A stretch of 64,000 nucleotides of DNA. Source: a virus. Shown in pieces: positions 183-59,900 of the stretch; within the stretch, counting starts at the first letter, position 1, and each line of letters starts with the position of its first letter. The stretch is from IMG/VR virus record IMGVR_UViG_3300004369_000011, positions 8,081 through 72,080 of that record. One strand, given 5' to 3'. The notes under the pieces are model-generated. The model was not told the DNA's origin and made no database searches. It was given only the letters and a program-made list of their open reading frames with translations. A program made the position numbers and the translations under genes.

Positions 183-1061
183 ATGACGATCAACTCTAAC
201 CAGTTACAAGTTGCCAAGATTTATCCTGGTAACTACACCAACGTTCTTCGTTACTGGCACGAAGAAAAGACCGTTCAGTATGACAATGCGAACGGTGTTC
301 CAACCACTCTTACCGGACAGCCTGTCGGCGGTCCTGTCGGTGTGGTGTTCCGTCCCGGCTGGATTGCTCAGCAGGCTATTGGTTATGTTGACCTGAGCTA
401 CCAAGCTCTGGGCACCAACAACCAATTGGAGTACTACACCCAGCCTTATGGCTCGGGTCAGAATAGTGCTACTCAGCCTTTCCTGAACGCTAACGTCATC
501 ATTCCTTCACCTGATTTCCACAAGGATATTCGGGCTGACATCACTGATGGCATCAAAGCTCCCGCTGGCGCTTTTGTTTACCGCGCTTCTCTCCGTCTTG
601 ACGGTGGTGATGTGGTCAGCAGCGGCGTGGCCGGCGGATCTGCTACTCCTCAACTGACTCTGGTTCCCGCTGTGGGTGCTGGTCTTCGTAACACAACCAC
701 GGTTGTTTCCGGTCAGTTCGGTGTGTCCTTGACAGGCGCTACTAGTCGAATTGCTAATGGTTCTACCGCTTCGGTAAACATTATCGATTCCAGTTCACTG
801 TCTGCTCTGGGTGCTGAGACTCAGTGGAAACTGTTCGCTACCTCCGATCTTGGCGGTGCGGCAGCTTCCGGTCTGGCGCAAGGTTCCGGCGTGTACGATC
901 CTCGTGCCGGTGCGAACCGTTTGGCAGGTAAGAATAAGGCTCTCGCAATTTGCGAAGTTTGCTGGATTCTTCCTGACAAAGCTCCTGAGCGTTCCGATCT
1001 TGCCCTCCAACCCGGCGGCTTGATCGAGTCCAATGCCTTCACCTCAACTGTTCCTACCTGA
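183..1061 (+). CDS. Putative virion structural protein (capsid-associated)
   Basis: 292 aa, G/A/S/T/V-rich. GAGG RBS upstream. Co-transcribed with the capsid gene up to the terminator. Confidence 0.6.
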   Translation: MTINSNQLQVAKIYPGNYTNVLRYWHEEKTVQYDNANGVPTTLTGQPVGGPVGVVFRPGWIAQQAIGYVDLSYQALGTNNQLEYYTQPYGSGQNSATQPFLNANVIIPSPDFHKDIRADITDGIKAPAGAFVYRASLRLDGGDVVSSGVAGGSATPQLTLVPAVGAGLRNTTTVVSGQFGVSLTGATSRIANGSTASVNIIDSSSLSALGAETQWKLFATSDLGGAAASGLAQGSGVYDPRAGANRLAGKNKALAICEVCWILPDKAPERSDLALQPGGLIESNAFTSTVPT

Positions 1062-1079
1062 TTTTTTCAGGAATTAACG

Positions 1080-1108
1080 ACCCCTTGCTTCGGTAAGGGG
1101 TTTTTTTT
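1080..1108 (+). terminator. Rho-independent terminator after the capsid genes
   Basis: ACCCCTTGC-TTCG-GTAAGGGGT hairpin followed by a T8 tract. Confidence 0.9.
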
Positions 1109-1198
1109 GTCTTGAAATAAAAATTTTGGCTTAATTTATGCAGCCTATTTTAATAATCAGAGGCATAGTTTAGAAGAAAAGTACGCTTCCTACTTTTT

Positions 1199-1462
1199 AT
1201 GTCAGATCGTGCACTGTCAGATTTAAAACTTGCGCGTAAAGAATGCGCTCGGTGTGGGGCTACCTGGCTGAATGGCTGTCACCACTGGGCCACAGGTTGC
1301 GTGGGTAATGAGTTGGATCTTGCTTCTCTCGTTTGCAACGAAGTAAATGACCCAGAGTGTATAAATCCGAAGAAAGGAAGTACCGGAGGGGACACTTGGG
1401 CAAAACGTAGCGCTTTTATAGAAGAAGCGTTACACAAAGTTAAAGCTCAGTTCGAAGTGTAA
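1199..1462 (+). CDS. Cys-rich conserved cyanophage/cyanobacterial hypothetical protein
   Basis: CxxCGATWLNG.H.W.TG...DLASLVCN pattern, recalled from cyanophage hypotheticals. Confidence 0.65.
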   Translation: MSDRALSDLKLARKECARCGATWLNGCHHWATGCVGNELDLASLVCNEVNDPECINPKKGSTGGDTWAKRSAFIEEALHKVKAQFEV

Positions 1463-1472
1463 GCTTTTAAAA

Positions 1473-1916
1473 TTAAAAATTAAGTCCGCCCTCCGTTCCG
1501 TAGCGAGCGTAAGCCCCCGCGTGGGGCTCGGCAACGGCTTGACACTTTCTTAAAGCGGCTTGCATCTGCCCTTTGTAAAATTCAGTTGCTTTACCTTGCC
1601 CCGCTCTTCCAGCTAAATCGCGTAAATGTCTTTCTACATTCAACGCGGGAGCGCATCCCTGAATATCTCTGAGTTGTTGAGGGCCTACAGGGCCGCTAAA
1701 TTCTGTAACTAAATCAATTATTTGAGGAATAGCGTCTAATCCGCCTGTGGCTGCCGTGGCAGCTAGTCCTCCTCCACCCACGATTACAGCATTTTTTACG
1801 CGTTGCTCCAAACTAGGTTCTTTTGGATTAAAAAGCTCTGCTCCTACAGCAAAAGCGTCGCCTACGAGGGGCAAACCTCGACCAATTTGCCCTGCAATAC
1901 GTCTTATGGGGGGCAT
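1473..1916 (-). CDS. Hypothetical protein with RIAG motif near the N-terminus
   Basis: 147-aa ORF. TAGAAT -10 box on the - strand at 1945-1950. Confidence 0.65.
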   Translation of the reverse strand: MPPIRRIAGQIGRGLPLVGDAFAVGAELFNPKEPSLEQRVKNAVIVGGGGLAATAATGGLDAIPQIIDLVTEFSGPVGPQQLRDIQGCAPALNVERHLRDLAGRAGQGKATEFYKGQMQAALRKCQAVAEPHAGAYARYGTEGGLNF

Positions 1917-4784: not shown

Positions 4785-5309
4785 ATGTCTTACAGCGGTT
4801 TTCCTACGGGATTTTCTTTAGAGTCCGTCATTGGAAACATTGATCCCTATGTCTCTTCGCTGGACCCCAAGGGAGCAATGGGTGTAGGGGAGTTTGCTCC
4901 TATGGACGACGGGTTCTTTAGTGGACCCTATTCCACTGCTTATGATCCGGAAGGAGGTAGGGGCAACTCATTTATTCGAGACCTCGGAAATTTTGCCGAG
5001 GAAATAACTCCAATTTTAGGAGGAACCGACGATATCATTAGGGCCATTAAAGGGATGCCCCGACGGGCAAACCGTTTTGCCGGTGAAGGCTTAGGAGGCT
5101 ATTTTGATCGTCAACGTGGAATGAGGGAGATAGCCCAAGAAGCTTTTAGGCCTTCACGCCCTGTTCAATCAGAAGCAGAAAATATTTCACAAGATTTGCA
5201 AATTGCTCTTCCGGAAAGAATGGCTGAAATTTTTCGTAGAGGTCTGGGTTTAGGCACAGAGACGAAACAAGGGCCTACTCGCTTACCGGTGATTCCCTTC
5301 CGCGATTGA
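4785..5309 (+). CDS. Hypothetical late protein (RFAGE motif)
   Basis: Likely start is ATG 4785 (MSYSGF), downstream of a TAAACT box at ~4760. Confidence 0.65.
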   Translation: MSYSGFPTGFSLESVIGNIDPYVSSLDPKGAMGVGEFAPMDDGFFSGPYSTAYDPEGGRGNSFIRDLGNFAEEITPILGGTDDIIRAIKGMPRRANRFAGEGLGGYFDRQRGMREIAQEAFRPSRPVQSEAENISQDLQIALPERMAEIFRRGLGLGTETKQGPTRLPVIPFRD

Positions 5310-5961: not shown

Positions 5962-7509
5962 GTGGCTAAAAAACGAGGCGCAGATAACTTTTCGCCTAAT
6001 GGTCCAAGACCACTTGGTCCTTTTAAACCTATTTCAAAACTTGTTGGATCTGATAAAAAATCTCAATTTTTACGTCCGTTACCTTTTAACCGTAAATTTA
6101 GACCAGTAACCAGTACAAAAGACTATAGCAACAGTGTCGTAAGTGAGTACAACTATGCTTCTCTCTGGTCACGTTGGCGCCGTGGCTATGAACTTAGCAT
6201 GTACGCACAAAACGCATACGGTGGTTTAGTCTACTCTTCTTTTAAATATTATGCCTCTGGTACGGCTGGTGTAGGTGGTTTTATTCCTGGTTTATTTTTT
6301 GCTTACCCATCACAGCGTAGTGATATGCGAATGCACATGGTGGGTATTCGTCCACGGGATACATTTAACTTTTTGGATTTTGGTATTTCAGTTCAATCTG
6401 TTACTCAATACGATTCAACTACGTTTGCAGTTGTTTTAAGCCAGCGGTTTGGCGCTCCTATTTCATTTTTTACTGGAGAAATACTGTCCAATAGATTTAA
6501 CGCTGACGGTACGGATAAATTGGTTGGGTACAACAACTACACCGTTACAGCCGTGGGTTTTAACGGGGTAATCACAACTCCTAGCATTAATCCAGATTTT
6601 AATACCTTATTTTTGTCAGTTACTGACGATAAGAGTTGGTTTGTAGATAACTCAGGTGATTTAGTTATACCGGCTACAGGGCCTCCTTTAGCGGGGGAGT
6701 TTTTAACAACAGAAGTTAGAATTCAGTGTTCTTGTCAAGATTTTTTAAGTCGAGAAAGTTTTAATTTTTATAATCTTTCTCTAAAACAAAAGTATCCCTA
6801 TACAAATATATTAAACATTGATCCTGGTTTTTTTGACGCCGGTTCTACCGCTTCTGAACGAATTAGTCCTTCAATGGACTATCCGGGTTACGCTAGAACT
6901 TTTGGTTTTGTTTACTTAAATAAAGTTTATACAATTCCTCCTAAGGCCGACCTACTAGCTAATTACTCTGATCCCTCTTTATTTTATTTCCAACCTAGAT
7001 GGTGTAAGCATATATACGCTGCCTATTGGGATATGCAACGTAGATTTGATTTATTTAGCGTAACTAATTTTCGCTTGTATCAGCCCAATGATGAGCCGAT
7101 GGACGAATATTATCGCGAAAAATTTGAAGTTGAGCTAGAAAAACAAACTACTTTCTTAAAACGAGAGGAAGATCTTGTTTGGTGGTTACGGTACAGTCCT
7201 TCTCTTGGCGGACTACCAAAGCATCTTATGTATTCTGATAAGTACAATATGATTGCTAAAACACTAAATTTTGGTCAATTAGATGACATAACTGAGCTTC
7301 AAGATACAAATTTTGAACTTTTTACTATAGATCAGTTTAATCCTTTGTCTCCTGGTAGTTTTCCGAGAGAAATTTATGACGGGGGGAGTTACGCTAATGG
7401 AGTACGTATTTCTAGTTCATCGAACGTTTTGGATGGTGGCCAGTATAGTAATGGTGTTCCTTTACCGCCAAGCGGTCCCCCTACTTTTATAAACGGAGGC
7501 ACTTATTAG
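5962..7509 (+). CDS. Virion-module protein with SWIM-type zinc finger
   Basis: CSCQDF...WCKHIYAA gives the CxC...CxH SWIM ligands. C-terminal DGG.Y repeats. Confidence 0.6.
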   Translation: MAKKRGADNFSPNGPRPLGPFKPISKLVGSDKKSQFLRPLPFNRKFRPVTSTKDYSNSVVSEYNYASLWSRWRRGYELSMYAQNAYGGLVYSSFKYYASGTAGVGGFIPGLFFAYPSQRSDMRMHMVGIRPRDTFNFLDFGISVQSVTQYDSTTFAVVLSQRFGAPISFFTGEILSNRFNADGTDKLVGYNNYTVTAVGFNGVITTPSINPDFNTLFLSVTDDKSWFVDNSGDLVIPATGPPLAGEFLTTEVRIQCSCQDFLSRESFNFYNLSLKQKYPYTNILNIDPGFFDAGSTASERISPSMDYPGYARTFGFVYLNKVYTIPPKADLLANYSDPSLFYFQPRWCKHIYAAYWDMQRRFDLFSVTNFRLYQPNDEPMDEYYREKFEVELEKQTTFLKREEDLVWWLRYSPSLGGLPKHLMYSDKYNMIAKTLNFGQLDDITELQDTNFELFTIDQFNPLSPGSFPREIYDGGSYANGVRISSSSNVLDGGQYSNGVPLPPSGPPTFINGGTY

Positions 7510-7510
7510 T

Positions 7511-8089
7511 ATGACATCAATTCCGGTAACTTCTCTTTTATTGAGATCTGGTAATGCTTCAGATAGACCTAGTGGCAATAGTTTCGTTAACGGAGAGCTT
7601 GCTATTAATTTTGGCGCCGCCGATCCAGGACTTTATTTTGAAGATTCTGCTGGAGGCGTAATCAAAGTCGGCCCTTCCACTTATGGAGTGAACCCTCCCA
7701 ATGCAACTCCCGTAGGTTTAGCAGGTAATTCACCAGGCGAAATCTGGACGGACTCCACTACCTCTGCCTATTATCTAAAAGTCTGGAACGGCACAGCGTG
7801 GCAGAAGATTGGTGCCGCTTTTGCTGACAATGCTCTGCAAGCCAGCGTAACAATAGCCTCTGGTGCTTTATTTGCTAACTCAGCTCTAGTTGCTTCAGGT
7901 GCTTTATTTGCTAACTCAGCTCTAGTTGCTTCAGGTGTCTTAACTGCTACCGGAGTAGCTTGTGCTGATATTTATACAGGAACTTTAACCGGTACTGCAC
8001 CTAGTGGATCTCTTCGGTATAAAACCGATGACACTAGCAGCCCTAGCGGTCTTTATGTTGCTTTTGCCGGAGGCTGGGCGCTAACTTAA
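7511..8089 (+). CDS. Tail fibre/appendage protein
   Basis: N-terminal LRSG...RP......GELAINF fibre-type motif, GE.W.D....LKVW.G..W repeat and ASG repeats. Confidence 0.65.
   Translation: MTSIPVTSLLLRSGNASDRPSGNSFVNGELAINFGAADPGLYFEDSAGGVIKVGPSTYGVNPPNATPVGLAGNSPGEIWTDSTTSAYYLKVWNGTAWQKIGAAFADNALQASVTIASGALFANSALVASGALFANSALVASGVLTATGVACADIYTGTLTGTAPSGSLRYKTDDTSSPSGLYVAFAGGWALT
7862..7937 (+). repeat. Exact 36-bp tandem duplication (GALFANSALVAS x2)
   Basis: ggtgctttatttgctaactcagctctagttgcttca occurs at 7862 and 7898. Confidence 0.9.
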
Positions 8090-9030: not shown

Positions 9031-9282
9031 GTGGCGAAAATTCGTATCGCTGGTGAGGTTTTTTCAGGGTATAACAAACCTCGGCCAGACTCTGATGGGG
9101 GTAAAAAATCTGCTGTTGCTGCTAAAGAGGGAGATACTGTGCGTTTAGTGCGCTTTGGAGACCCCAACATGACCATTAAAAAACATATTCCTGAGCGTCG
9201 CGCAAATTTTCGAGCTAGGCATAATTGTGACAACCCCGGTAGCAAGCTCAAAGCTCGTTATTGGAGTTGTAAGGCCTGGTAG
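9031..9282 (+). CDS. Conserved small basic phage protein (RFGDPNM...FRARHNC...YWSC family)
   Basis: Motif familiar from cyanophage/aquatic phage hypotheticals. N-terminal RIAGEVF. Confidence 0.75.
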   Translation: MAKIRIAGEVFSGYNKPRPDSDGGKKSAVAAKEGDTVRLVRFGDPNMTIKKHIPERRANFRARHNCDNPGSKLKARYWSCKAW

Positions 9283-10469: not shown

Positions 10470-11096
10470 GTGGCCAACTCATTCTTTGGTGATCTTGCCG
10501 GAGCATTACCTAAGATAGGGGGTGCGGTACGCGCTGGCCGAGATATTTTTGACACTGTTGAAGGTAATTCCAAGGGCTTGGCTTTTGATGATCAATATGT
10601 CAAAAAAACTACAGAGGAATTAGATAGACGAGCAGCGGACACGTTGCAGCAGATTCGCGATGTATTTGCAGAAGTCAGCGGCTTAACGGGTATTGGCACG
10701 GCTGACGCTGTTCAAAGTTATATGAATCGATTTAAAGATTATTTTGAGCCTACTATTGCTAAATACAGCGAAAATGTATACGGTTTTCAACCAGATGTAA
10801 CTAAGTCTTATGCGACTGCTGCTGGGCGTATTGACGATATGACAAAGCAATATAGTTTGCTAAATCGCCCAGGGTATATGGAGATGGCCCGGAACCCAGA
10901 CACAGTTAAAGTTGACCCCTCGGCAATTACTAGCATTGCGACAGATTATTACACATCGCCACAGGCGGCTAAAAATTACGATTACAGCGGCCCCCAGACA
11001 CAAGCTCTGATCCGTGGGCGGACAGGAGCTATCGATGAAATTGCAAGTGCGTACGCTAATCCTAATGTCAAAGCTTTAATGAACTACAACTACTGA
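10470..11096 (+). CDS. Hypothetical late protein (possible internal virion protein)
   Basis: 208-aa ORF. TATAAT box at 10442. Confidence 0.6.
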   Translation: MANSFFGDLAGALPKIGGAVRAGRDIFDTVEGNSKGLAFDDQYVKKTTEELDRRAADTLQQIRDVFAEVSGLTGIGTADAVQSYMNRFKDYFEPTIAKYSENVYGFQPDVTKSYATAAGRIDDMTKQYSLLNRPGYMEMARNPDTVKVDPSAITSIATDYYTSPQAAKNYDYSGPQTQALIRGRTGAIDEIASAYANPNVKALMNYNY

Positions 11097-11398
11097 TGAG
11101 TAAGCTCGGACGTTCCAATGTCGATAGACGTATTGGCCGTCAACTTGGAAAACGTCTGCGTCATGTAGAAAAAGAGCCCCGTCAGTTTCGACTAGCGGGA
11201 GCTTTGTTTAACACTGGGCCTGCAGAGGTAGCCCAGAAACGAGCACGCCAAGCAAAAAGAAAAGCACAACAAATTAATCCTGTTGGTTTAGGTTTTGCTT
11301 CGCGTGATACTTACGGACCAGACGATAATTGGGATGTTGTTAAATCACTCAATAGTATATCCTACCAAGATTACTATACAGCTCAGCAAACTTACTAA
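11096..11398 (+). CDS. Small basic hypothetical protein (RLAGALF motif)
   Basis: TGATG overlap with the previous gene. Confidence 0.6.
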   Translation: MSKLGRSNVDRRIGRQLGKRLRHVEKEPRQFRLAGALFNTGPAEVAQKRARQAKRKAQQINPVGLGFASRDTYGPDDNWDVVKSLNSISYQDYYTAQQTY

Positions 11399-29902: not shown

Positions 29903-30430
29903 ATGGAAAAGAGTAACCTCCTGCAGCGCCCTGGCGGCCTCGGCCCCATGAATGCCATGCAGCCTCTCGGCGGCACAGGGATTCAAAGCCCTGCTGCATA
30001 TGCCGTTACCCCGGAGATGATTGCTGTCCGTAGGGCGGCGGGGATAGACAATATCAATCGAGTGATGGCTCAATACTCTCGTGACAGGGGCGAGACTGTT
30101 CGGGCTGCTGTCGGCCCCACAAACTATCAAGAAGGGAATATCATGCCTTCTATGCAGGCTACGGGGCCTGCTGGATACCAGCATCGTGATCCTCTGGTGC
30201 TGCCTGATAGACCAGCGGATATGACTAAAGCGGATTATTTAGTCAAAGAACAAAACAGCATGAACCCTGATCTGCGAGCCAAAATGCAGATCTTAACTAC
30301 GTTACCCCAACAAAATTTTTACAACGTGCAAGACGTTTCGACGTCGCTGATGACTCAGGATTACAGAACCCCCGCAAGTCTGCCCATGCAAAGGCTTGCT
30401 GGCGAGAGGATGCGCAACCGTGGTAAATAA
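29903..30430 (+). CDS. Hypothetical late protein (C-terminal RLAGE)
   Basis: 175 aa, M/P/Q-rich. Confidence 0.65.
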   Translation: MEKSNLLQRPGGLGPMNAMQPLGGTGIQSPAAYAVTPEMIAVRRAAGIDNINRVMAQYSRDRGETVRAAVGPTNYQEGNIMPSMQATGPAGYQHRDPLVLPDRPADMTKADYLVKEQNSMNPDLRAKMQILTTLPQQNFYNVQDVSTSLMTQDYRTPASLPMQRLAGERMRNRGK

Positions 30431-30557
30431 CGATTTCCCGATTCGTTTAGCAGGTATGCGCCTAGGGCTCACGCCTCCGGACGTCACCAAGTTTGCTACA
30501 AACCCCCGCGAGGTGACAGCTCGCCTTCGGTATCAACAAACTTTCCCAAAAAGCTAG
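30420..30557 (+). CDS. Small hypothetical protein (45 aa, RLAG motif)
   Basis: MVNNDFPIRLAGMRLGLTPPDVTKFATNPREVTARLRYQQTFPKS*. GTG start overlaps the upstream gene and the ORF fills the gap before thyX. Confidence 0.5.
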   Translation: MVNNDFPIRLAGMRLGLTPPDVTKFATNPREVTARLRYQQTFPKS

Positions 30558-31897: not shown

Positions 31898-34733
31898 GTT
31901 TCTGAAATGCAGTTTCCCAAAGAAGGGGGTCAGGGTTTTGTGCGAATTCAACTGGGCTTGGAAGCCGATCAGGACCATAGGAAGCCCGATCGGATGTTAG
32001 ATCATAGGCCTTTAGTCGTAAACCAATGACAGCCGGTAATCCGTTCTTAAACGTCAGGCCACAGCTAGAGAGCTTAAGGATGTTAACCAAAGCTTCCCGC
32101 GTTCTTTCTACAAACCGAGGTTTAGCCGCAGCTTTGTAGCCACAGGCCTTACAGAAGTTAACGTAGCTTGCGTACAGCTCTGAGTAAGAGTCTTTGACAT
32201 ACAGCCCTCGCTCTGCCTCGTCTGTTGAAGGCTTAGAAGCACCCCTACCAATGACCGTGGCCGAATTAGGGGAGTACAGGCAGCACTCTCCTAACCAAGA
32301 TACAAACTGATTGTTGAACATCAATGCCTCGATGTTCGTCTTCGCAATGGAAGGGACGTGCTTAACCGGGTTAGCCAAGATGTCACGCATTTTATCGTGG
32401 CTTAGGCTAAGAGCCCATGTCACAATGCCACTCATTTCCGGGACAAAGGAACCAGCTAAGCGGTCCTCGTGGACGCTGAGGAGTTCTCGCCGCTCGCTTG
32501 GGGGCACTACCTTGTCCATCACAATAGTGAGTCGCCGACGCTCCAAACCGCTACTGGAGTCGTTTGAGGAGATGTGCTCATTACTTGCAATGCAAACTAA
32601 GCACTCTGGTTTAAAGCTGATAATTTCTTTACCGTATTTACGTTCCGCACGTAGAGTGTCTGATGCTGATGTAAGTTTTTTAAGTACGTCCATTCGTTTG
32701 TTGTAGTTTGATTCGTCTGTCAGTAGCAACAAACGCTTTCCAATAAGGTTATAAGTCTCGAATTTATTTGTTTCGATGATTTCCAAACTCGATGTGTGGG
32801 AACCGCTAAAACCAGCTAAGGCAATCATCAACTGCTGCATTGTTGATTTACCCGTTCCTCCTGGGCCTACAAGGTGTAGGAACCTTTCACCCGCCGTATA
32901 GCCGGTCAGCAGCGCTCGACAAAAAGATTGAATCAACAGAGCCTGACCCGTATCTAGGGCTTGAGTTACCCATTTAAGAAACTCAGGGCATTTCGCTTCG
33001 GGGTCGTAATCGTAAGCAAGTTTGCTACGAAGATACAAATCTTTTTGCTGCCCCGCTTGAAAGTGAAAAGTTTCGCTATCTAATACACCGTTTTGAAAAG
33101 GAATGTACTTACGTCCCTTAGACCATATGCTGCGACGTCCACCATCGACGGATCTCAACAACTTGGCTTTAAGAATTTGAAAGACACTGCTTACCGTGGC
33201 AGAGTTGTATTTGGACATAACTCCAGCGGTAACAAAGCTGTCTAGCGCACGAATAATGCGCCGCTTGATATGTTGCTCATCTTGCGCATACCAGACACCC
33301 AAATCATTGTCATAAGTATAAAATTGGTCTAGGTTGCTGTCGTAAATAAAATCATCACCCTGATTTGTGACAATGATGTCAGCTACATCGTTCTCAGAAA
33401 ACTGACGATTATTAGTGCCGTTTGCGGTTTGTAGGTTAATAAGCTGTGTAGGGCTTTGCGGCGTATTCATAGTGCTTTGAGGTGACGGTGTAGATGAAGA
33501 TGTAGATGTAGATGTAGATGTAGATGTTGTTGGGGACTGCACGACAGGACCTAAATTAAAGTCCTCAGCAGTCAGAATTGAATTAGAAGGAACTGCCCTG
33601 GTCTGTTTAAGAACTTCCCTGATTGCCTCGGGGACTTTCTGTTCGTATAAGCCGCGATCTTGAGATCGGACTTTTTTCCAAGCAGCAGCGGCGCCTAAGT
33701 CGGAGGCTAGGGACACGGCGGGCAAGAGGTCCGCTGCCCCGTGAATTGAGTTTAAAATCCGATTGAATTTGCCATCTATATCGTGAGGGTAGTCGTAGAT
33801 AGCATAGAACGCATCCTGTGCCACCGTCAAGGGGGACACGCATACAGTTACATTGTTTACCCCCAGCCAATTCGCCCAACCTATAAGCTCTTTAAAGACG
33901 GCAGCCATTGTGGAGGAACGGTCCTCCACTGGCTCCCCATTCAAAACTGAGCGGACGGTTTGCGAAACCAAACTTTTTAGTTCCAGTCCCTCCGCACTGA
34001 CTGGAGTGTTCTGCAGAATGTCCTCTGGATCCCCACCCGTGCCTTGGTTGTCCGATGGGAGTGAAGAATATGCACTGTAAGCTTCGTCTATCTTCTGTGA
34101 CGGAATAAATTTATCTGTCTGTAAGAGAATTGCCTCTGGTGTGCGAGCCCCGTAAAAGAGGTTGGGGCATTGCGTGGCCCTAATATCAAATCCCGGAATT
34201 TGTTTACAGATTTCCCGTGTGAACCATTGGTAAAAACCCGCGTCAATAATCGGTTTTTCTAAACCAAAAACTAAACGAAATCGAGGCCAACCTTCTGCAG
34301 TTGAAGGGGAGTCGTAGGCGAAAGTAAGGTATTTCTTACACAGGTCTAGTTCGAGAGCTTGTTCAAAAGTTAGTTCCTGTTTTTGAATTTTATCTCCCGC
34401 CGCATCTTTACCGTCAGCTTGGTTGTCGATGTCGACAATAATCATGCCGGCTTGAATTAAACCCGTGTTGTTTCTTTGACGCTTTCCTTCAATTAAATGC
34501 CACGCGCACAATCCGGTGCTGCGACCTATCTCTTGGGCTAAGTCACTAATAGATATACATACTGGTTTCCAGTTCTCATTAAACGCGGTGAAGTTACCCC
34601 CCGTGGGTATCTTGCCCGTGTTCTTGTCTAAATGAGAGGCAACCTTCTTGTTTATAGAGCAAATGTAATTCATAGACTGTCGCAGAGTGTCCTCCAGTAT
34701 GCCCCGGATCGTCCAGGACGCCAAGGGGAGCAA
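31878..34733 (-). CDS. Primase-helicase: AEP/PrimPol-like N-terminus plus D5/P4-type SF3 helicase
   Basis: IVDID and Y.SPS.....PRFRLVF in the N-terminus. IPFQNGVLD (D5_N), Walker A GPGGTGKS, LLTDE and CIASN. Confidence 0.9.
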   Translation of the reverse strand: MLPLASWTIRGILEDTLRQSMNYICSINKKVASHLDKNTGKIPTGGNFTAFNENWKPVCISISDLAQEIGRSTGLCAWHLIEGKRQRNNTGLIQAGMIIVDIDNQADGKDAAGDKIQKQELTFEQALELDLCKKYLTFAYDSPSTAEGWPRFRLVFGLEKPIIDAGFYQWFTREICKQIPGFDIRATQCPNLFYGARTPEAILLQTDKFIPSQKIDEAYSAYSSLPSDNQGTGGDPEDILQNTPVSAEGLELKSLVSQTVRSVLNGEPVEDRSSTMAAVFKELIGWANWLGVNNVTVCVSPLTVAQDAFYAIYDYPHDIDGKFNRILNSIHGAADLLPAVSLASDLGAAAAWKKVRSQDRGLYEQKVPEAIREVLKQTRAVPSNSILTAEDFNLGPVVQSPTTSTSTSTSTSSSTPSPQSTMNTPQSPTQLINLQTANGTNNRQFSENDVADIIVTNQGDDFIYDSNLDQFYTYDNDLGVWYAQDEQHIKRRIIRALDSFVTAGVMSKYNSATVSSVFQILKAKLLRSVDGGRRSIWSKGRKYIPFQNGVLDSETFHFQAGQQKDLYLRSKLAYDYDPEAKCPEFLKWVTQALDTGQALLIQSFCRALLTGYTAGERFLHLVGPGGTGKSTMQQLMIALAGFSGSHTSSLEIIETNKFETYNLIGKRLLLLTDESNYNKRMDVLKKLTSASDTLRAERKYGKEIISFKPECLVCIASNEHISSNDSSSGLERRRLTIVMDKVVPPSERRELLSVHEDRLAGSFVPEMSGIVTWALSLSHDKMRDILANPVKHVPSIAKTNIEALMFNNQFVSWLGECCLYSPNSATVIGRGASKPSTDEAERGLYVKDSYSELYASYVNFCKACGYKAAAKPRFVERTREALVNILKLSSCGLTFKNGLPAVIGLRLKAYDLTSDRASYGPDRLPSPVEFAQNPDPLLWETAFQKHDPAKN
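33489..33527. repeat. (GATGTA)n microsatellite encoding a Thr-Ser linker
   Basis: tgtagatgaagatgtagatgtagatgtagatgtagatgt encodes TSTSTSTSTSSST. Confidence 0.85.
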
Positions 34734-38848: not shown

Positions 38849-39820
38849 TCAGCGCTTAAACAGTTCGTCATAAAGACCACCGCCACCGGGGACGTTCGTC
38901 CCTCGTAGTAAGTTTTTGTTTGATTGTAAGTAGTTGCGAATAGACTCATCTGACTGTCCCTTAGCCCGTGCAGCCTCTAAATCTTTGTGACCAAAGAACT
39001 CGGGGCTGTCTCCGTACGTTGTAGAAATCTGACTGCTTTGCGAGGCGGCGGCAGGGGAAGAGGATCGTGCGCCGCTAACCACATCATAAACACCGCCCCC
39101 ACCAGGGACGTTGGTCCCTCGGAGCATGGCGATATTTTGGTCAAGAAATTTTTTAACGTCCGTGTCGGCTACACCTTTCTGACGAGCTGCGTCTAGGTCC
39201 GCTTGACCAAAGAAGTCAGGGCTTTCCCCGTAAGCAGAAGAAATTTTTGACATCTGCTGTTGCTGCCGAAGCGCGTCGCCTGAGAAACCCGTTGTTGGGA
39301 CACTCCCCTTCATTAGTTGATCGAATAGGCCACCTTTACCCGGTATGTTTTCCCCCCGGAGTAAACCAACGTTTTTATCAACAAACTCTCTGATCTCTGT
39401 GGGCGAGTAACCGGCTTCTAGATTTCGGAAGTAGTCTTCATGTCCGAAGAATTCTGGGCTCTGTCCAAAGGAGGAGGATATACCGGGTCGGGTATCCTTG
39501 GGTGGCTGTGGCTGCTGCAAGGGTCCGATATTAATGTCACCTATACTCCCCCCTGTGGCAACAACGTTACCTCTTCCTTCTAGACCCCCGTAGGTCTTTG
39601 TTGCCGTGGGTGTGCGAGGAGCTTTAAAGCTCAAAGCACCTCCCCTGCCTTTTTCCGTTGTTTGTACCTGTGTCAAAGGAAGCCCTTGAAACTGGTCACC
39701 AACAATATCTTCTGCACTTTCTGCTCGTAAGTCAAACAGCTCTTCTAAATTTTCAAGCGTAAGTCCAAAGCGCTCTCCTGCTTTAGCTACGGGAGTACCT
39801 TTGTAACGAGAAGAAGTCAT
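38849..39820 (-). CDS. Protein with three ~60-aa repeats, probably late/virion
   Basis: ISS.(F/Y)G.SP.FFG..D...A...G.....I..F...N...LRG.N.PG.GG.(F/Y)D x3. TATACT box at 39844-39849. Confidence 0.7.
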   Translation of the reverse strand: MTSSRYKGTPVAKAGERFGLTLENLEELFDLRAESAEDIVGDQFQGLPLTQVQTTEKGRGGALSFKAPRTPTATKTYGGLEGRGNVVATGGSIGDINIGPLQQPQPPKDTRPGISSSFGQSPEFFGHEDYFRNLEAGYSPTEIREFVDKNVGLLRGENIPGKGGLFDQLMKGSVPTTGFSGDALRQQQQMSKISSAYGESPDFFGQADLDAARQKGVADTDVKKFLDQNIAMLRGTNVPGGGGVYDVVSGARSSSPAAASQSSQISTTYGDSPEFFGHKDLEAARAKGQSDESIRNYLQSNKNLLRGTNVPGGGGLYDELFKR

Positions 39821-39854: not shown

Positions 39855-40121
39855 TCAGCGAGCCTTGTACCCACTTGGTTTAGCACCAGCAAATAGCCTT
39901 GGGGCTTGTGTTTCGTGTTTTTGAAGTGGTTTAAAGCCCCCAAAAGGAGCCACTGCCCCTGCTTCTCCTACGGAAGAAAATTCTTGTTCTTTTGTTGTAT
40001 TTCCAATTCTCTTCGTAAAGTCTTTAAATTCAGGAAAGTAATCGACGAGGATAGATCGATCCGGACTGTCGTCCATTGGACCGGGGCGATTAAAAACGTC
40101 TCCCGCAAAGCGCCGCGTCAT
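39855..40121 (-). CDS. Small hypothetical protein (RFAGDVF N-terminus)
   Basis: 88-aa ORF. Confidence 0.6.
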   Translation of the reverse strand: MTRRFAGDVFNRPGPMDDSPDRSILVDYFPEFKDFTKRIGNTTKEQEFSSVGEAGAVAPFGGFKPLQKHETQAPRLFAGAKPSGYKAR

Positions 40122-51291: not shown

Positions 51292-51495
51292 ATGCGTGTC
51301 GCCGGGGAAGTTTTTACATCAGAGGAGAATGAGCCTGCGATTGCATCTTCCTACGAAGACCGGAATCGTGAGCGTGGGGACGCCAAGATTCTGTACAAGT
51401 TCATTATGGGAGGAGGGTTAGGTGACCCTAAACAACATGGGGACACACTGAAGCGGTTACTAGATCAGATCAGTGGGGTTAATTTAGGCGTGTGA
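51292..51495 (+). CDS. Small protein starting MRVAGEVF, on the opposite strand within the early region
   Basis: TAGAAT at 51259-51264. Exactly fills the gap between - strand genes and carries the shared motif. Confidence 0.6.
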   Translation: MRVAGEVFTSEENEPAIASSYEDRNRERGDAKILYKFIMGGGLGDPKQHGDTLKRLLDQISGVNLGV

Positions 51496-51501
51496 GTTGG
51501 G

Positions 51502-51786: not shown

Positions 51787-52007
51787 TAGAACATACCTCG
51801 TGAGTCGATGTGATCTTGAATTAAAGCATCGGAGGGTTCCCACCCGTCTATATATTGCAGAGCAGGAATAACATTCTCCTCCAGTTGTTCGATGATGTCG
51901 AAAGGCAGAAGATCAGTGTCGATTAGATACTTGAAGCGGGCTAAAGATTCTTTAGCCAGGGTGTAACAATTCATCTTTTTAATATCAGTCGGAGCGGAGA
52001 AGTTCAT
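51786..52007 (-). CDS. Hypothetical early protein
   Basis: Overlapping array. Confidence 0.55.
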   Translation of the reverse strand: MNFSAPTDIKKMNCYTLAKESLARFKYLIDTDLLPFDIIEQLEENVIPALQYIDGWEPSDALIQDHIDSRGMF

Positions 52008-52192
52008 CGGGAAATAACTTTGTCTTGGGTGTCTTCAACTTGAGAAGTAACAACAACACGTTGACACAGTGAGTTATATGCTGCAGGACATTCGCGCATC
52101 AAGATTTTGCGAAGATCGTGCTGCATGTGATGATTAACAACTGCAAGTAGTTGATCTTTGTGAAACTCTGAAAAGTAAGGGCTGTAGCTCAT
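52004..52192 (-). CDS. Hypothetical early protein
   Basis: Overlapping array. Confidence 0.55.
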   Translation of the reverse strand: MSYSPYFSEFHKDQLLAVVNHHMQHDLRKILMRECPAAYNSLCQRVVVTSQVEDTQDKVISR

Positions 52193-52389
52193 GGGTTTGT
52201 TATGCAAGTGGCAGGGGAGATGTTGACTGTTGAAATGTTGCCCTCAATAGAAATGAGAGCAGCATCAAGTTCACTGATAACTTTCTTGTTGTCTGCGTAG
52301 ATAACTGGATAGTTATTTAGTAGGCGAATCAACTCGGAACGATAGTCAATTAGTGCAGTCCGGAGCGTGGTGGTTTGCAGCGTGATCAT
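52189..52389 (-). CDS. Hypothetical early protein
   Basis: Overlapping array (ATGA junctions). Confidence 0.5.
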   Translation of the reverse strand: MITLQTTTLRTALIDYRSELIRLLNNYPVIYADNKKVISELDAALISIEGNISTVNISPATCITNP

Positions 52390-52538
52390 GTGAGTTCAAT
52401 TAGGTTCTGTTTTTCGAGCAAGATTAGGTGATCAAGTACATCGCCAAGGGTAGATCGAACGTACTCATCTTTCAGTGCAGCTTGATCGTAAGCATCGTAT
52501 ACAGTTGAGTACAATTTGTTGAACTGTTGTTTGTTCAT
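52386..52538 (-). CDS. Hypothetical early protein (50 aa)
   Basis: MNKQQFNKLYSTVYDAYDQAALKDEYVRSTLGDVLDHL... with ATGA overlaps at both ends. Confidence 0.6.
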   Translation of the reverse strand: MNKQQFNKLYSTVYDAYDQAALKDEYVRSTLGDVLDHLILLEKQNLIELT

Positions 52539-52702
52539 GATTCCCTCCATGCTTTGCAGCAACGTGAGCTTACATAATAATCAGCAGAGTAGTCAGCGTA
52601 GCGATACTCTCGCACTACACAAGATGCCTCTTGGTAAGAATCAAACTCGTCCATAGTTTCAAGGTAGTTGTGATTAATTGATCTGCGTTGGATGTAGTAC
52701 AT
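52535..52702 (-). CDS. Hypothetical early protein (55 aa)
   Basis: MYYIQRR...LETMDEFDS..EA.....EY......YYVSSR.CKAW. Confidence 0.6.
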   Translation of the reverse strand: MYYIQRRSINHNYLETMDEFDSYQEASCVVREYRYADYSADYYVSSRCCKAWRES

Positions 52703-52704
52703 AA

Positions 52705-52905
52705 TTAGAAGGTGATTGTTTGTGTAGTGTCAGAGAAAGTCTTGGTGCGTAGGTACTCAAGCGTAGTTAGATCATTCTTTGCCCAATCACCCCCAGGATG
52801 ATTTGGAGTTTCATTAAGTAGTTGTAAAAGATCCTGTTCATATGCACGAATCATGCGGCGCATGAAGTCACGTTCTGCATTGTAGTTAGTGTTGTAGATG
52901 GCCAT
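52705..52905 (-). CDS. Hypothetical early protein
   Basis: Start probably MAIYNT. Confidence 0.5.
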   Translation of the reverse strand: MAIYNTNYNAERDFMRRMIRAYEQDLLQLLNETPNHPGGDWAKNDLTTLEYLRTKTFSDTTQTITF

Positions 52906-52992
52906 GATGTTGTTGTGATTGTGTGATTGATGCCACGCGAAGCGTGATGTCTTGAGACAACTTAAACAGGTCTGGTGTTGCCTCAAGCTAAC

Positions 52993-53310
52993 TTAAACAA
53001 GCCAGAAGTTATCTAGCTTGAACTCATTAACAAACGATTTAGCAATCGCTTCCGCCGCAACTAAACGCTCAGGCTTCGCAAATAGCGAGTTCCACGATGT
53101 AGTTAGTGACCCATACTCTCGCTGATAATCTTTAGCCGCTGGGGTGCACAAATACCGTTCTATGTAACCGATTGCTCGGTCAAGATCGAACGTATTGTTA
53201 AGCCAGAACTTAGATAAAGTCTTGCCCACACTGTTGTAGTGTGCACTAGAGAAGTTAACTGCATACTCTTCTAGTTCGCGTGCAGCTTCAGTGTCGATTG
53301 TGTAAGTCAT
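52993..53310 (-). CDS. Hypothetical early protein
   Basis: Start probably MTYTID. Confidence 0.6.
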   Translation of the reverse strand: MTYTIDTEAARELEEYAVNFSSAHYNSVGKTLSKFWLNNTFDLDRAIGYIERYLCTPAAKDYQREYGSLTTSWNSLFAKPERLVAAEAIAKSFVNEFKLDNFWLV

Positions 53311-53326
53311 AGTTGGGTGATAAGAA

Positions 53327-53503
53327 TTAGAGTGCGGAGTGATAAACAATTTTCGCGTTCTCCCTTGCACTGGCGGGCATCTTTGTGATCTTCATTGCGA
53401 AGTCGATTGCCGCAGTTTCATTAAGTGCAGCAACAATAACGTCACCGATTCTATAACCGGGGAAGCGAACATCGTAGCGCTCCATGATGTCGAAGTTAGC
53501 CAT
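53327..53503 (-). CDS. Hypothetical early protein (58 aa)
   Basis: MANFDIMERYDVRFPGY... fills the gap in the array. Confidence 0.5.
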   Translation of the reverse strand: MANFDIMERYDVRFPGYRIGDVIVAALNETAAIDFAMKITKMPASARENAKIVYHSAL

Positions 53504-53537
53504 AGTTAAGAGGTGATTGTTAGTTAAACGATGATAA

Positions 53538-53852
53538 TTAGGAGTAGTAGCGGCCCATAATAACGTCGTTGTCTTCAGTGAACTTCATAAGAATCCCACT
53601 GAAGAATGAGTCGCCGTGGTAACCCTCCCAGCCTGGGAATGAATCACCCTCGTTGCGCATGAAGTCACCCAGGCAGTAGTAATAACCTTTATAGTTTACG
53701 AATTGGGTATCTTCAAACTCAGTTTCAGTTAGGTAGTCAAACTGTTTGCGGAGTTTGATAGTTTCAGCGTCGCCGATGTACAACTCAGCGCATAACCCTG
53801 AGAATGTTTCTCTAGGCTGATTGTTTGTGATGATGGTTAGAGCAGCAGTCAT
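53538..53852 (-). CDS. Conserved phage early protein (first gene of the early operon)
   Basis: I.TNN.PR...FDYL...F..YKG.YY.L.DF......W.G...DSFFSG. AGGTG RBS. Confidence 0.7.
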   Translation of the reverse strand: MTAALTIITNNQPRETFSGLCAELYIGDAETIKLRKQFDYLTETEFEDTQFVNYKGYYYCLGDFMRNEGDSFPGWEGYHGDSFFSGILMKFTEDNDVIMGRYYS

Positions 53853-54402
53853 GATGATTCACCTGTATGCAATGTGATGTAGTGAGGGAAGAATCCCTCA
53901 GTTTGATGTAGTATCAAAGAGAGAGAATCTGTTAGGTTGGTGATCATAAATGATCTAACCTTAATCTAGATCAACTGTACATCTTGATGATGTAGAGGCT
54001 ATCAGGAACCTACCCCAAGTTAGTTAGGGAAAGTCGGCCTAAACTTAAAGTAACGTACAAAGCGCACTAAATACATGCAAAGCATATACTTAATGCGCCA
54101 AGTGCGTCAGTTCTTTGTATTTAGTTCCACGTTGGCGATGCGTGGTAGAAGTTAACGCCGTTAAAAGTGATGACAGGAAGTCTATGGGCTCTGTCCAGAG
54201 TACCTGCACTAGACACAGTGACTCTGGACAGAGGAAAGGAATCGATACGGCGCACACTTAACGAGTCGGGTTGCAACTCTATTGTGCTCGGGGGATCACT
54301 CGCGCCCCTAGTTCCATTTTCTGGCCATATCTGTTATGCAGAATAAGTTAACTGTGCCTTAGGCTTTCCGTACAAACTATCTCAGTACAGTTAACTATTC
54401 AG

Positions 54403-56069: not shown

Positions 56070-56237
56070 CTAATGCACGACCTTCCAGGCGTTTGTGTCA
56101 ATCTGACATGGGCGATATGTTTTTCCGCGATATTTAAGCTGGAGATCGGGACGATGGATTAAACGCCACCATTTGGTAAATTCTTCTGCAGCTTCTTCTT
56201 TGAAATAGTTTACGCCGCGATAGCAAAGTGTAGTCAT
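56070..56237 (-). CDS. DUF4278-like peptide (55 aa)
   Basis: MTTLCYRGVNY...LKYRGKTY has the twin L.YRG..Y motifs typical of the cyanobacterial DUF4278 family. Confidence 0.7.
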   Translation of the reverse strand: MTTLCYRGVNYFKEEAAEEFTKWWRLIHRPDLQLKYRGKTYRPCQIDTNAWKVVH

Positions 56238-56363
56238 TGTTACAAAAACTCTCTTCTTGAATGCTAAACCCCTTTATTTTTGCGGATTGCAGCGCATTGT
56301 TACACTAATTGTTAAAAGAGTCTTAATTTTTGAGCAAGCAGCAACGGGTTTTTATTGATATTT

Positions 56364-56765
56364 CTAGTAATCCTTTGACATAGTTTCAAGGGAAAGCTGA
56401 ATGTCTACGTAGATTTCGGGGGGAAAGGCGCTGAAGAATTTCAGTGTGGCCGGGCAAAGCCATCCGGTAAGTGTTTTGTCGGTATGCGTTACCAATTCGT
56501 TTATTTTTTGCAGGCTGTACCAGTAACCCCCGCTTTCAAATTCGTGCTGCAGTAAATAAAATTTTGTTTGAGGGAACGGGTTAGAAGAAAAAGTTATGCG
56601 ATACGTGCTGTTTTCTACAAAGCTATATTTGTCTTTAATAATTGTGTTAATCATTTCAGGAATCCCGAGCACAAAAGGCTCGTGCAGCAGATCTCTTTTG
56701 CTGTCGGTAAAGCACCACGTCCCTGCGTGGCGATAAATTTCCAGGGTAAGGAGCGCATTAGCCAT
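56364..56765 (-). CDS. Conserved hypothetical protein (W.F.D....L..EPFV.G...GWLCPA...FF...P family)
   Basis: Recognisable conserved phage/bacterial motif. Start probably MANALL. Confidence 0.7.
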   Translation of the reverse strand: MANALLTLEIYRHAGTWCFTDSKRDLLHEPFVLGIPEMINTIIKDKYSFVENSTYRITFSSNPFPQTKFYLLQHEFESGGYWYSLQKINELVTHTDKTLTGWLCPATLKFFSAFPPEIYVDIQLSLETMSKDY

Positions 56766-56903
56766 GACTGGGTACGGTCTGTGAGTATCAGCGCATCGTA
56801 GCACACTGTGTAAGTATTGGTCTGTCCGCCGGGTTAGCCAATACAAGGGGGAGGGAAGCTGCGGACTATACCGATATAATGAGTTATAGCTTTAATCAGT
56901 CCG

Positions 56904-59900
56904 ATGCCTGTTCCGGAATACTATTCTCCTGAACAAGTTCGTAAGGCCGCCGAAGCAGTTCGAGAGGAAACGCGACGGACATCTGATTTTAGTCGTAACG
57001 CTCGTCGGAGTCTGTTTAATCGCGCTGTAGATGAGGGGTTACTTGCCGATGACATCGAAGAGATTGCCGATGAGTTAGGCGAGGATCCTTCAGATATAAA
57101 TTTTCGCGATTATCGTACGGTAGATGACTACCCAAACTATATTCCTTATAGCTATAGCTCTTCAATAGAGATTGATCCGGATCTAGAAAATTACACGGGT
57201 TATCGGTTGGCAGGGCAGGATCCTAAGGTTCGTCAGTATTTAAGTGACCCTGTAAATCGCTCTTCTTCTGCCTCTCCTGAGCTGCTAGATCAAGTTTTTC
57301 AAGATATTGCAGAAGGTCGAGTTAACCCTAATGACTTAAACGATTTACGTAGTTCTTTTGCATCGGAAATACTTAATGACCCAGACCCAACAGCGTCTCA
57401 GTGGGAAGCCGCTAACTTTATAGAGGCAGAGGGCAATGCTACTTATCCGCTTACGGCTGCAGAACGGTTAAGCTCCCAGCGTGGGAGGGGGCAGCTGGAT
57501 CCCGATATCTATTCTGGGTTTTTAGAGTTAGAAGAAGATGTGCTTGCCGCAACTTCCCTTGCTCGCACAGCTTTAGAAACGGAAACTAGTCGAGTGGGTG
57601 TACAACAAGCGCTTAACAGACGACTTAATGAGCTAGAGGGAAGTGAGGGCGGTTTGTTTCAAGATGATGCAAGACAACGATTAGCCGAGTTGGCGTCGCG
57701 TATTCCGCCTGACGTTATTCCGACCACGAGGCAAGAAGCAACTGATACGCGTAATCTGCTTTATGACCTTCAACGAAATTTAAATACCTTTAATGTTCGT
57801 GATCCTTTTAGAGAGGATTTAACTCCTCAAAGGATGGCTGAGACTGTTTTACCTTCTGTTCGAGATGCGCTAGGGGCAGAAGTAGCGGGAGACGCTGCTT
57901 ATCGAGCTATGCAAAATCGACGAGGCGAACAAAATCGAGAATTACGTCTACAACAAGGCGACTCTGTAAGAGCAAATAACCAAGAAGCTATGCGAATGAG
58001 GAGGGGGGAGCAGCGGGGACGTATTGAAGCGGAGATGGCGCGTATGAATGAGCGGGCCCGTAATCCAGTCGATATAAATACCAGGAGCCTTAGTCCCACC
58101 TTTGTTGGTGATGGTCGGGTCATTAGGCAGGACTCTATTTCAGGACTTGCTGAAAATATTGAGCAGATTCAAAACGAAGCACGGTTGAGACGTGGCCAAG
58201 CAAAGCTTGAGGACCTTAGGAATGTTCTTGCTGACTACCCGGAGGTTGAGAAACTTTTAACAGCACCTCCTCGCAAGGGAGCCCCTCAACGTATCAAGGG
58301 GGAGGAGTTCAAACCATACATGCAATATGCCGATACGACACAACAAGCATCTATGCCTGCTGATCGGGCAGCGTTGTACGACAAAATTATTGGCGGGTAT
58401 GATGATCTTGATCTAGAGAATATGACTCGGGATACTTTAAATAGAGCAGAAAAACTTTATACCTCCGGAAGCACAGAAGCGCAGAACGAAGCTCGGACTC
58501 TTATTCAAGCACTCGCGGATAACAATGAGTTGCAACAAATTGAAAAACCCGCATTCCGTACACAGAGGCCTATCGTTGGCGGTGGTGAGTATGTAAACCT
58601 TAGAGAGCCTCAGCAGAATCTAACTGAGTTACGTAATTATATCGAGCAGCGTTCGTCACGGGTAAATAAAGCACTTGAGGCTGCACAGAATGCTTTGGGC
58701 TCTGAAGTCCTTAAAACGCAATATCCCGGACTTGAAAGTCCAGTCGGCGGTCCCTTACAAGCTGCGTTTAAATTTGATCCCATTACTCGTGAGGTAACTC
58801 CATCTGATATTTTCGAGCCAGATGTGTATCGAGTTAAAGTAAGCCCCGCTAGAGCCGGTCAATTTAGGCTTGAAGATCTGCGGGACTTAGGTATGAGAGA
58901 TAGTGTATCTTTAAATGCTTTACGTTTCTTCCGAGATAACCCTGTGACGGGTACGGGGCAAATTGCCTTTGATACAGCAAAGCCAGGGGAGGACTATTCC
59001 GGCTATGAGGCTCAGACTGATATGCCGACGGAAGTCACACAACGGTTCCAGCAATTTATTCGGGACACTGGGTTAGAGCAAACTCGCCCCGGCACCTTGG
59101 TAATGAACTCCCCCATAGGATCCACTGACTTGTACAACAGACGTGTAAGAGGAGGAGAAACGGCTGATACAAGCAGCACCGTACGGAAACTTCAGCCTTT
59201 TTATGATGCTGGACAGACGTTGCCTAATTTACGAGGTTCCTCTTATATGGCCGCTGGTTTCGGGCCTACCTTACAAGAAGGGCAACAGTATGGGTATGTA
59301 GATGCGCAAGGTAGAGTTGTACCGCTTCAGCCCACGCCTACGGAGTCCGCACTCCGTGGCCAAGTTAGGGTTCCTCAAGTTGGGCCTTCTGTTGTTCGGC
59401 AAGATGTATTACCCTTAGCGTCGACTCCTCGGTATTATTCAGCGGACCCTGTAACAGCACTTGTGCCAGGTGCAATGGAGTTTGGCCGGGCTATTCGACG
59501 CACACCCGCCGCTTTGTTGCCCGGCGCTGCTGATTTAATCCCAAGTCCTGAGGCTATTCAAACGGGTTATAGGGAGGGAGCCGGAGCGATGGCAAGGCAG
59601 ATGGCAGGGGAGTTTATGCAGGGGTTACCTGTATCAGCCGCCGCTGCCTCGGCTTTAGCTAACCCAATTGGTGCTGTTGTTGCACCTGGTATTGGTGCGG
59701 GGATGGTCGGGGTAGCAGGGGCACGGGCGCTGAATGAAGTTGTGCGACAACAAACGGGCGAGGGGATTGTGCCGAAATTGAGGCAGGCTTTGGGTACGGC
59801 GCCTCGAACTGGTGTGGCGGATCGGAATAGGGCGCGTCCTCTTGGGGTTAGTGGTCAGCCGGCACGAGTTGTGCCCACGCGGCAGATGAACCCGATTGTT

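Follow-up and report, generated by a model that had tools for sequence, protein, structure and literature searches.

A conserved R-hydrophobic-A-G motif on otherwise unrelated proteins of an S-EIV1-related phage lineage: a candidate docking element

Encapsulin cargo peptides are short, Gly-containing and usually C-terminal sequences that dock unrelated cargo proteins, without being cleaved, inside the HK97-fold shell of bacterial nanocompartments, and poxvirus I7 and adenovirus-type proteases process their targets after A-G or G-G. We analyzed a stretch of viral DNA of 64,000 nucleotides, referred to below as the window (bases 8081-72080 of the 72,080-bp IMG/VR record IMGVR_UViG_3300004369_000011, which has a completeness of 89%), in which otherwise unrelated proteins carry a short motif built around R-hydrophobic-A-G. 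Two phage systems offer further comparisons. Excerpts of the T4 literature (PMC3012670) describe the internal proteins IPI-III and Alt as a diverse, fast-changing set of small proteins that share only a short, mostly N-terminal peptide, and excerpts of an account of phage 80alpha (PMC5744158) describe an N-terminal motif that its capsid and scaffolding proteins share with ribosomal protein L27 and that is cut by the host protease Prp.

We named the motif carriers by the first window position of their open reading frame (ORF; Table 1). As far as those excerpts go, the T4 capsid-targeting sequence (CTS) is a fair functional analogy: the motif is N-terminal in the 39855, 9031, 51292, 1473 and 30420 families, and the carriers share nothing else. 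However, the sequence differs, neither a prohead protease nor a scaffolding core was recognized in the window, some carriers have the motif at an internal site and one has it within a predicted folded domain, and half of the carriers lie outside the late block. The 80alpha case is similar in that one short N-terminal motif recurs on phage proteins that are not homologous and, by the excerpted description, is read in 80alpha by one common factor; there, however, the motif copies a Firmicutes ribosomal protein and is cut between F and A, whereas the host here is probably a cyanobacterium and cleavage is not indicated. With the sites of I7- and adenain-type proteases, the motif has in common an A-G pair preceded by a hydrophobic residue, but no clan CE protease was found in the window (only the C39_2/C70-like half of an endolysin), and the capsid protein shows no precursor segment and has no R-hydrophobic-A-G. 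Should the motif load the phage head, the nearest known mechanism would be that of encapsulin cargo peptides, although their consensus differs. A short signal shared by unrelated phage proteins is of a kind already known.

R-[LFIV]-A-G was noticed in a first-pass annotation of the window, which grouped ten supposedly late, mostly orphan proteins into one set and proposed that the motif directs them into the head or marks them for a maturation protease. The core of this proposal, a short peptide on unrelated proteins, stood up, and the motif is real, conserved and lineage-specific in at least six families; the protease, the late timing and the set of ten found no support, with about four of the listed hits attributable to chance. 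Our preferred reading, to which we give a probability of about 0.5, is that this is a lineage-specific docking motif that would bind one common partner.

Excess and conservation of the motif

A six-frame scan of the window returned 21 R[LFIV]AG sites, including all 11 that had been named (ten carriers and a helicase), each in the ORF to which it had been assigned; the near match K-A-G-E-R-F was likewise present in ORF 38849. In a crude proteome of 104 ORFs and 19,702 amino acids (aa), in which three ORFs were included because the first-pass annotation had named them, the pattern occurred 11 times, compared with 1.67 expected from composition. Within-protein shuffling gave an expectation of 1.47 (standard deviation, 1.2), and none of 2000 shuffles reached 11, bearing out the claim of an enrichment over chance. 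When the three added ORFs (all real genes, with orthologs) were dropped, 8 sites were observed and 1.88 expected. When 117 ORFs were searched over their first 14 residues, 5 proteins had the pattern vs 0.13 expected, two of these five N-terminal starts having been picked beside the motif. Among 8000 patterns of the same form, R-[LFIV]-A-G ranked second. The pattern at the top of this ranking, A-[LFIV]-A-S (36 observed, 3.2 expected), presumably derives from a repeat-rich protein.

Third codon positions vary among the sites and the flanking DNA is unalignable, so the signal sits in the protein and not in the DNA, and a DNA-level repeat or common promoter was ruled out on these grounds. Several carriers had been credited with their own -10 box; a simple scan upstream of 51292 and 9031, on their strand, found no promoter-like site.

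We compared the carriers with relatives drawn from 57 loci collected via DNA polymerase, five fuller genomes, 80 loci collected via the 9031 protein and 36 stretches collected via a DNA pattern. Over ~2.3 Mb of collected loci, start-proximal R-hydrophobic-A-G marked 8 conserved ORF clusters (2 or 3 of them present by construction, since loci were collected through those families), while 23 permutations of the same residues marked 0-4, with a mean of 1.4. The motif was kept in the 39855, 9031, 51292, 1473, 11096 and 30420 families, and partly in 4785.

Conservation was most extensively sampled in the 39855 family, where the motif was present in 35/35 distinct orthologs that are only 21-39% identical to the window protein. 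R4, A6, G7 and F10 were invariant and D8 was found in 33/35, with a mean column identity of 37%. An exhaustive profile search of 1.84 billion proteins yielded 60 representatives (50% clustering), of which 56 had R-hydrophobic-A-G within the first 25 residues; one of the other four has a seemingly truncated start, and three are long proteins matching another segment of the profile. A second island of conservation in this family reads S-x-L-x-x-Y-F-P-x-L, and F-[AG]-G-F-K occurs once or twice at the C-terminus of many members; in the alignments, both look like further short linear motifs.

The 9031 protein had been taken for an orphan. It matches PHROG 7595 (E = 4e-16), belongs to a family of 6057 members and has no Pfam match. 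H64, C66 and C80 are invariant in this family, possibly forming a metal site, and a longer ORF antisense to the gene (8850-9251) is probably spurious. For 51292, the sole ortholog found (locus L006, 52% identical) starts M-R-F-A-G-E. In the 1473 family, R-[MLI]-A-G is found close to the N-terminus (positions 5-28) in all 8 distinct members, which are 28-46% identical. In the 11096 family (17 distinct orthologs, 29-46% identical), R32, A34 and G35 are among only seven invariant columns and the motif is kept in 21/21 matches; the 30 residues ahead of it are conserved as well. R-[LM]-A-G-x-R-[LF]-G is kept in all 4 orthologs of 30420 that cover the site, and its segment A-G-x-R-hydrophobic-G also matches the N-terminus of the 38849 family. 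In two genomes, a small gene beginning M-N-R-F-A-G adjoins the 30420 ortholog. We also observed that the capsid N-terminus, M-F-I-D-N-D-F-P-K-I-L-G-A-E-L-Y (V-F-I-D-T-D-F-P-K-I-L-G-A-E-L-Y in S-EIV1), resembles N-N-D-F-P-I-R-L-A-G-M-R-L of 30420, a likeness that could be due to chance.

Two further carriers were less clear. No BLAST orthologs of 4785 were found, but its slot is occupied by a gene in relatives as well, and when ~14 versions were compared by eye the motif was intact in five relatives representing three versions (L121, L122/L123 and L124/L125) besides the window, degenerate in four versions (R-M-A-A, R-L-A-S, R-P-A-G and R-L-G-E) and absent in the remainder. In the 38849 family, A-G-x-[RK]-[FL]-G is kept in 16 of 18 aligned relatives and the R-hydrophobic part is not; self-matches also revealed three internal repeats of ~45-50 residues each in the window protein. 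In another sub-lineage, this slot, directly after the 39855 ortholog, is filled by a different repeat protein, 330-630 aa long and with Y-N-P-x-x-G-x-H repeats towards its C-terminus, which starts M-R-F-A-G-D-I-F-F or M-A-F-[RQK]-L-A-G. Among orthologs of this repeat protein, 17/21 have [IV]-R-hydrophobic-A-G near residue 60, where a domain ends and a Pro/Thr-rich linker follows.

Aligned by position, the motif consists of an invariant R, a hydrophobic residue, invariant A and G, usually D or E, any residue, and usually F, L or W; from these alignments, the real motif is R-hydrophobic-A-G-[D/E]-x-[F/L/W], and it is under strong purifying selection. In four families, the residue after A-G is D or E in most members. 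The motif lies within the first ~10 residues in 39855, 9031, 51292 and 1473, near residue 9 in 30420, and at an internal but fixed position in 11096 (residue 32) and 4785. A near-identical heptapeptide occurs in the first 11 residues of three proteins of one genome. When motif variants of the 9031 and 11096 proteins were compared within genomes, no obvious co-variation was seen; R, A and G never vary.

The claim that the carriers have no other similarity was upheld by hhalign profile-profile comparisons between families, in which only 7-15 columns aligned, centred on the motif. Paralogy of the carriers was excluded, since BLAST and hhalign align the motif only. The bacterial sliding-clamp binding motif, which has the consensus Q-L-[SD]-L-F, was also considered and rejected, the position table having no Q and no L-x-L-F spacing. 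A full-text literature search for six heptapeptides, which left out subscription journals and ~1.7 million PubMed Central articles, found no paper.

Not every listed site was conserved. At 183, R-L-A-G was found in 1/24 aligned relatives (others have K-L-S-G, Q-L-R-G, S-L-A-G etc.), and in the primase-helicase in 1/36, with R-I-E-G or H-I-E-G in the others. In 29903, one of four matches, the window's own, reached the motif, the alignment with the relative G001 ending at L-P-L-Q-P-L. In 56904, two of four aligned relatives have R-L-A-G, one has R-L-A-A and one has nothing similar. Because the motif is not kept in relatives, we count about four of the listed hits as chance. Could the whole pattern then be a chance clustering of four residues? 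That 4 of the 11 listed hits are not conserved fits this explanation, and any pattern chosen post hoc can look enriched; nevertheless, neither the shuffling result nor the rank among 8000 patterns agrees with it, and it is contradicted by conservation over dozens of diverged orthologs in six families. We regard it as extremely improbable.

Lineage restriction and predicted structure

In the proteomes of loci resembling the genome labelled G000, R-hydrophobic-A-G was observed 133 times vs 35 expected, and the extended form 59 times vs 0.7 expected, counts that are inflated by orthologs and by the choice of loci. In other phages that share the 9031 family, the corresponding numbers were 17 observed vs 16.8 expected, with no copy of the extended form. 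The 9031 homologue itself has R-[ILV]-A-G-E-x-F in 30/30 loci that share 5-25 genes with G000, and Y-[RK]-G-[EQ]-x-F in 50/50 loci that share 1-3 genes with it. In a tree of this protein built without the motif region, one well-supported branch (100/97) divides the two forms, from which we conclude that they reflect a single evolutionary event, in either direction. The exact DNA pattern for M-R-F-A-G-D-x-F had 38 matches in 2.9 million viral contigs (IMG/VR); 28 lie at the start of 39855-family genes, 2 at the start of this lineage's repeat protein, and 8 are seemingly chance. S-EIV1 genes at matching positions do not have the motif. By these sequence comparisons, the motif is specific to this S-EIV1-related lineage.

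An AlphaFold2 (AF2) model of the 9031 protein, built from 30 family members, had a predicted local distance difference test (pLDDT) score of 89.5 and placed residues 4-6 and 9-11 in paired strands joined by an A7-G8 turn, so that the motif is modelled as the N-terminal beta-hairpin of a small beta/alpha domain. A fold search with this model returned no match at E <= 0.001, and the ESM Atlas had nothing for 11096 or 1473. In contrast to the 9031 model, that of 39855 had a pLDDT of 58 and a predicted template modelling score (pTM) of 0.19, and the protein is predicted to be disordered.

The motif is likely a functional tag. We favor its interpretation as a docking element because it combines an invariant Arg and a tight A-G turn with extreme conservation in fast-evolving, partly disordered proteins, in unrelated families of one lineage, and from these features we infer both that it would bind something and what the candidates might be. 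Several observations weigh against this interpretation. The motif has no uniform location, being N-terminal in some families but internal in 11096, 4785 and the repeat proteins, and the residue after A-G is Q, K, R or N in the 1473 family and K, R or A in 8/17 members of the 11096 family. In 9031, the hairpin belongs to a confidently folded domain, and a sister branch of the family has a similar hairpin of different sequence, so the motif in this protein could be purely structural. The cluster and lineage-proteome counts are inflated, as the loci were collected via two carrier families, and since the 9031 switch was a single event, its match with the lineage counts as one observation. Finally, R-hydrophobic-A-G is also in excess in S-EIV1 (9 vs 2.3 expected), where several copies lie in Gly/Ala-rich stretches and none has the extended motif.

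Some of these observations favor what is the main rival to a docking role, namely that the carriers have no common partner and that a favourable beta-hairpin with a two-residue turn arose independently, or spread by small recombination, and was kept in each protein for its own structural reasons. The integral hairpin modelled in 9031, the equivalent hairpin in its sister branch, the varying location and the differing residues after the turn all fit such an explanation. On the other hand, the 39855 protein is predicted to be disordered, yet the motif is its most conserved part, and a hairpin does not need an invariant Arg two residues before the turn. The excess is also limited to a single phage lineage, with a ratio of 1.0 elsewhere among phages, and hairpin preference does not readily account for the near-identical heptapeptide at the start of three proteins of one genome. 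We therefore consider a structural role without a partner somewhat unlikely.

Gene layout and neighbouring candidates

The window belongs to an uncultured relative of cyanophage S-EIV1. Identity to the counterparts in Synechococcus phage S-EIV1 is 48% for the portal protein and 69% for the major capsid protein, and S-EIV1 was the sole match in a portal search over 50,697 phage records. Immediately upstream of the window, the gene order is portal, a 258-aa protein and the 371-aa capsid protein; the capsid gene is at 7133-8245 of locus L077 and its 3' end falls at window position 168. Pfam matches to Kyano_Gp96 and DUF4278 and a weak NblA-like match suggest, at the level of sequence, a cyanobacterial host. 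The NblA-like (phycobilisome degradation) match is to an 80-aa ORF (E = 3.3e-4, under the Pfam cut-off) that is conserved in 53 related loci.

Table 1. Motif carriers, sites not kept in relatives, and other features of the window (positions in the window).
Feature	Position	Strand	Motif or remark
88-aa acidic protein, two genes downstream of DNA polymerase A	39855..40121	-	R-F-A-G-D-V-F, residues 4-10 (40092-40112)
83-aa basic protein	9031..9282	+	R-I-A-G-E-V-F, residues 5-11 (9043-9063)
67-aa protein, opposite strand inside early block	51292..51495	+	begins M-R-V-A-G-E-V-F (51295-51315)
147-aa Gly/Ala-rich protein, opposite strand inside structural block	1473..1916	-	R-I-A-G, residues 6-9 (1890-1901)
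100-aa basic protein	11096..11398	+	R-L-A-G-A-L-F, residues 32-38 (11189-11209), internal, fixed position
~45-aa protein upstream of thymidylate synthase	30420..30557	+	F-P-I-R-L-A-G-M-R-L-G-L (30444-30464)
174-aa protein between 532-aa and 184-aa structural-block genes	4785..5309	+	R-F-A-G-E-G-L (5073-5093), internal
323-aa repeat protein adjoining 39855	38849..39820	-	near match K-A-G-E-R-F, residues 12-17 (39770-39787); doubtful member
R-L-A-G in 292-aa protein after major capsid gene (ORF 183-1061)	918..929	+	chance hit
R-L-A-G in primase-helicase (ORF 31878-34733)	32451..32462	-	chance hit
R-L-A-G 12 residues before C-terminus of ORF 29903-30430	30392..30403	+	probably chance
R-L-A-G at residue 101 of 1030-aa protein (ORF 56904-59996)	57204..57215	+	weakly conserved
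Structural and tail-fibre genes, accessory genes between	1 to ~24,000		
Several 2OG-Fe(II)/JmjC oxygenases	~20,500-26,400		
JmjC-type oxygenase	25143-25787		
Endolysin (413 aa)	27,966-29,207	+	
Thymidylate synthase	30,587		
Replication block: primase-helicase, exonuclease, single-stranded DNA-binding (SSB)-like protein, DNA polymerase A, MoxR ATPase, von Willebrand A (VWA) protein	31,878-48,286	minus	
80-aa NblA-like ORF	36457-36699	+	
Operon upstream of DNA polymerase	43757-48286	-	
VWA protein (523 aa)	43757-45328	-	
MoxR-type AAA+ ATPase	45309-46493	-	
Small early-type genes	48,500-54,000		
tRNA-Leu (anticodon TAA), sole tRNA of the window	61592-61673	+	

By gene position, four families lie in the structural block and four in replication, nucleotide-metabolism or early blocks; of the proteins that had been called late, 39855, 38849, 30420, 29903 and 51292 are in blocks of the latter kinds. 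This division bears on the proposal that the motif is a leader of the T4 type, which would load its carriers into the prohead and which a maturation protease would cut off, either directly behind A-G or behind the E that comes next. The excerpted T4 precedent (PMC3012670) is in its favor, as are the sharing of only one short, mostly N-terminal motif by unrelated small, highly charged proteins and the position of the 1473, 4785, 9031 and 11096 families between the capsid and tail-fibre genes; however, the 39855, 30420 and 51292 genes and the 38849 slot lie elsewhere. No member of a prohead protease family was found in 108 ORFs searched with Pfam or 114 searched with PHROGs, though a very divergent protease could escape such searches, and no protease gene lies between those for portal and capsid. 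Alignment of the capsid protein with that of S-EIV1 begins at residue 1 and so gives no sign of a propeptide. The sole candidate protease seen is the endolysin, in which an N-terminal phage lysozyme is joined to a C-terminal papain-like Peptidase_C39_2/C70-type domain (residues 242-368, E = 8.5e-11), but this domain, being fused to a lysozyme, is most simply a cell-wall peptidase. Where the motif is internal, as in 11096, 4785 and the repeat proteins, it does not behave as a leader, and in 11096 the residues before it are conserved too; in 9031, it is modelled as a structural part of the fold, which cleavage would break. The maturation-protease signal proposed in the first-pass annotation accordingly found no footing, and we consider a cleaved leader improbable.

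The operon upstream of the DNA polymerase gene encodes 150-aa and 399-aa proteins, the MoxR-type AAA+ ATPase (bpMoxR match, E = 3e-54) and the VWA protein, whose D-x-S-x-S...T...D metal site is intact. Short acidic motifs are ligands of VWA domains, and terminal tags are often recognized by AAA+ machines, which raises the possibility that the motif is a client tag for this pair, with the VWA metal site holding the acidic residue after A-G and the ATPase remodelling or delivering the client. The operon, with both of these proteins, is kept in 5/5 fuller relatives and was not found in S-EIV1, which also lacks the extended motif, and the frequency of D or E after A-G would suit such a site. This evidence is one of co-occurrence, however, the acidic position is not invariant, and we know of no precedent for such a tag; in our estimation, the idea is a long shot.

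Other neighbours gave no lead. Profile searches of four conserved neighbours of the carriers (46632, 42646, 47834 and 40138) against PDB sequences yielded nothing usable in the hunt for a partner, and the JmjC-type oxygenase, considered as an Arg-modifying enzyme, was dropped since its gene occurs only in this genome. The region that contains it (20494-26416) has three genes for 2OG-Fe(II) oxygenase-like proteins, one of the JmjC_2 (ribosomal-oxygenase) type and one labelled ferrochelatase by PHROGs, interleaved with tail-collar and fibre genes, and most of these have no counterpart in relatives.

Possible uses of a docking motif

The motif was placed on, or evolved in, at least six otherwise unrelated protein families, and it probably forms a small beta-hairpin that turns at the A-G pair. 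As a docking element, it would act as a short linear motif for one common partner, conserved in the lineage. Its likeliest uses would be recruitment into an assembly such as the procapsid or virion, with no proteolytic removal, or capture by a hub or chaperone of phage or host. Cleavage-free loading of the head is possible, and four carrier families lie in the structural block. In its most specific form, this would mean a protease-independent cargo tag, in which the R-hydrophobic-A-G-[D/E]-x-F hairpin attaches to the inside of the capsid, to the portal or to an assembly factor, and a changing set of small acidic or basic proteins is loaded into the head and delivered with the DNA; we consider this form distinctly unlikely.

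Members of this lineage occur widely in both lakes and seas, but S-EIV1 and metagenomes are the only sources from which it is known, and the functions of most of its genes are unassigned. A shared docking motif would join at least six of its unassigned families into one functional set, and the seven-residue peptide would serve as a handle for seeking their common partner. Should that partner be a host or phage hub, the motif would mark a set of proteins that act on one target. Should it be the capsid or portal, it would point to cargo loading without a head protease, which may be usable for packing foreign proteins. As a cargo tag, it would be to phages what cargo peptides are to encapsulins, and would solve independently the task that T4 performs with its capsid-targeting sequence.

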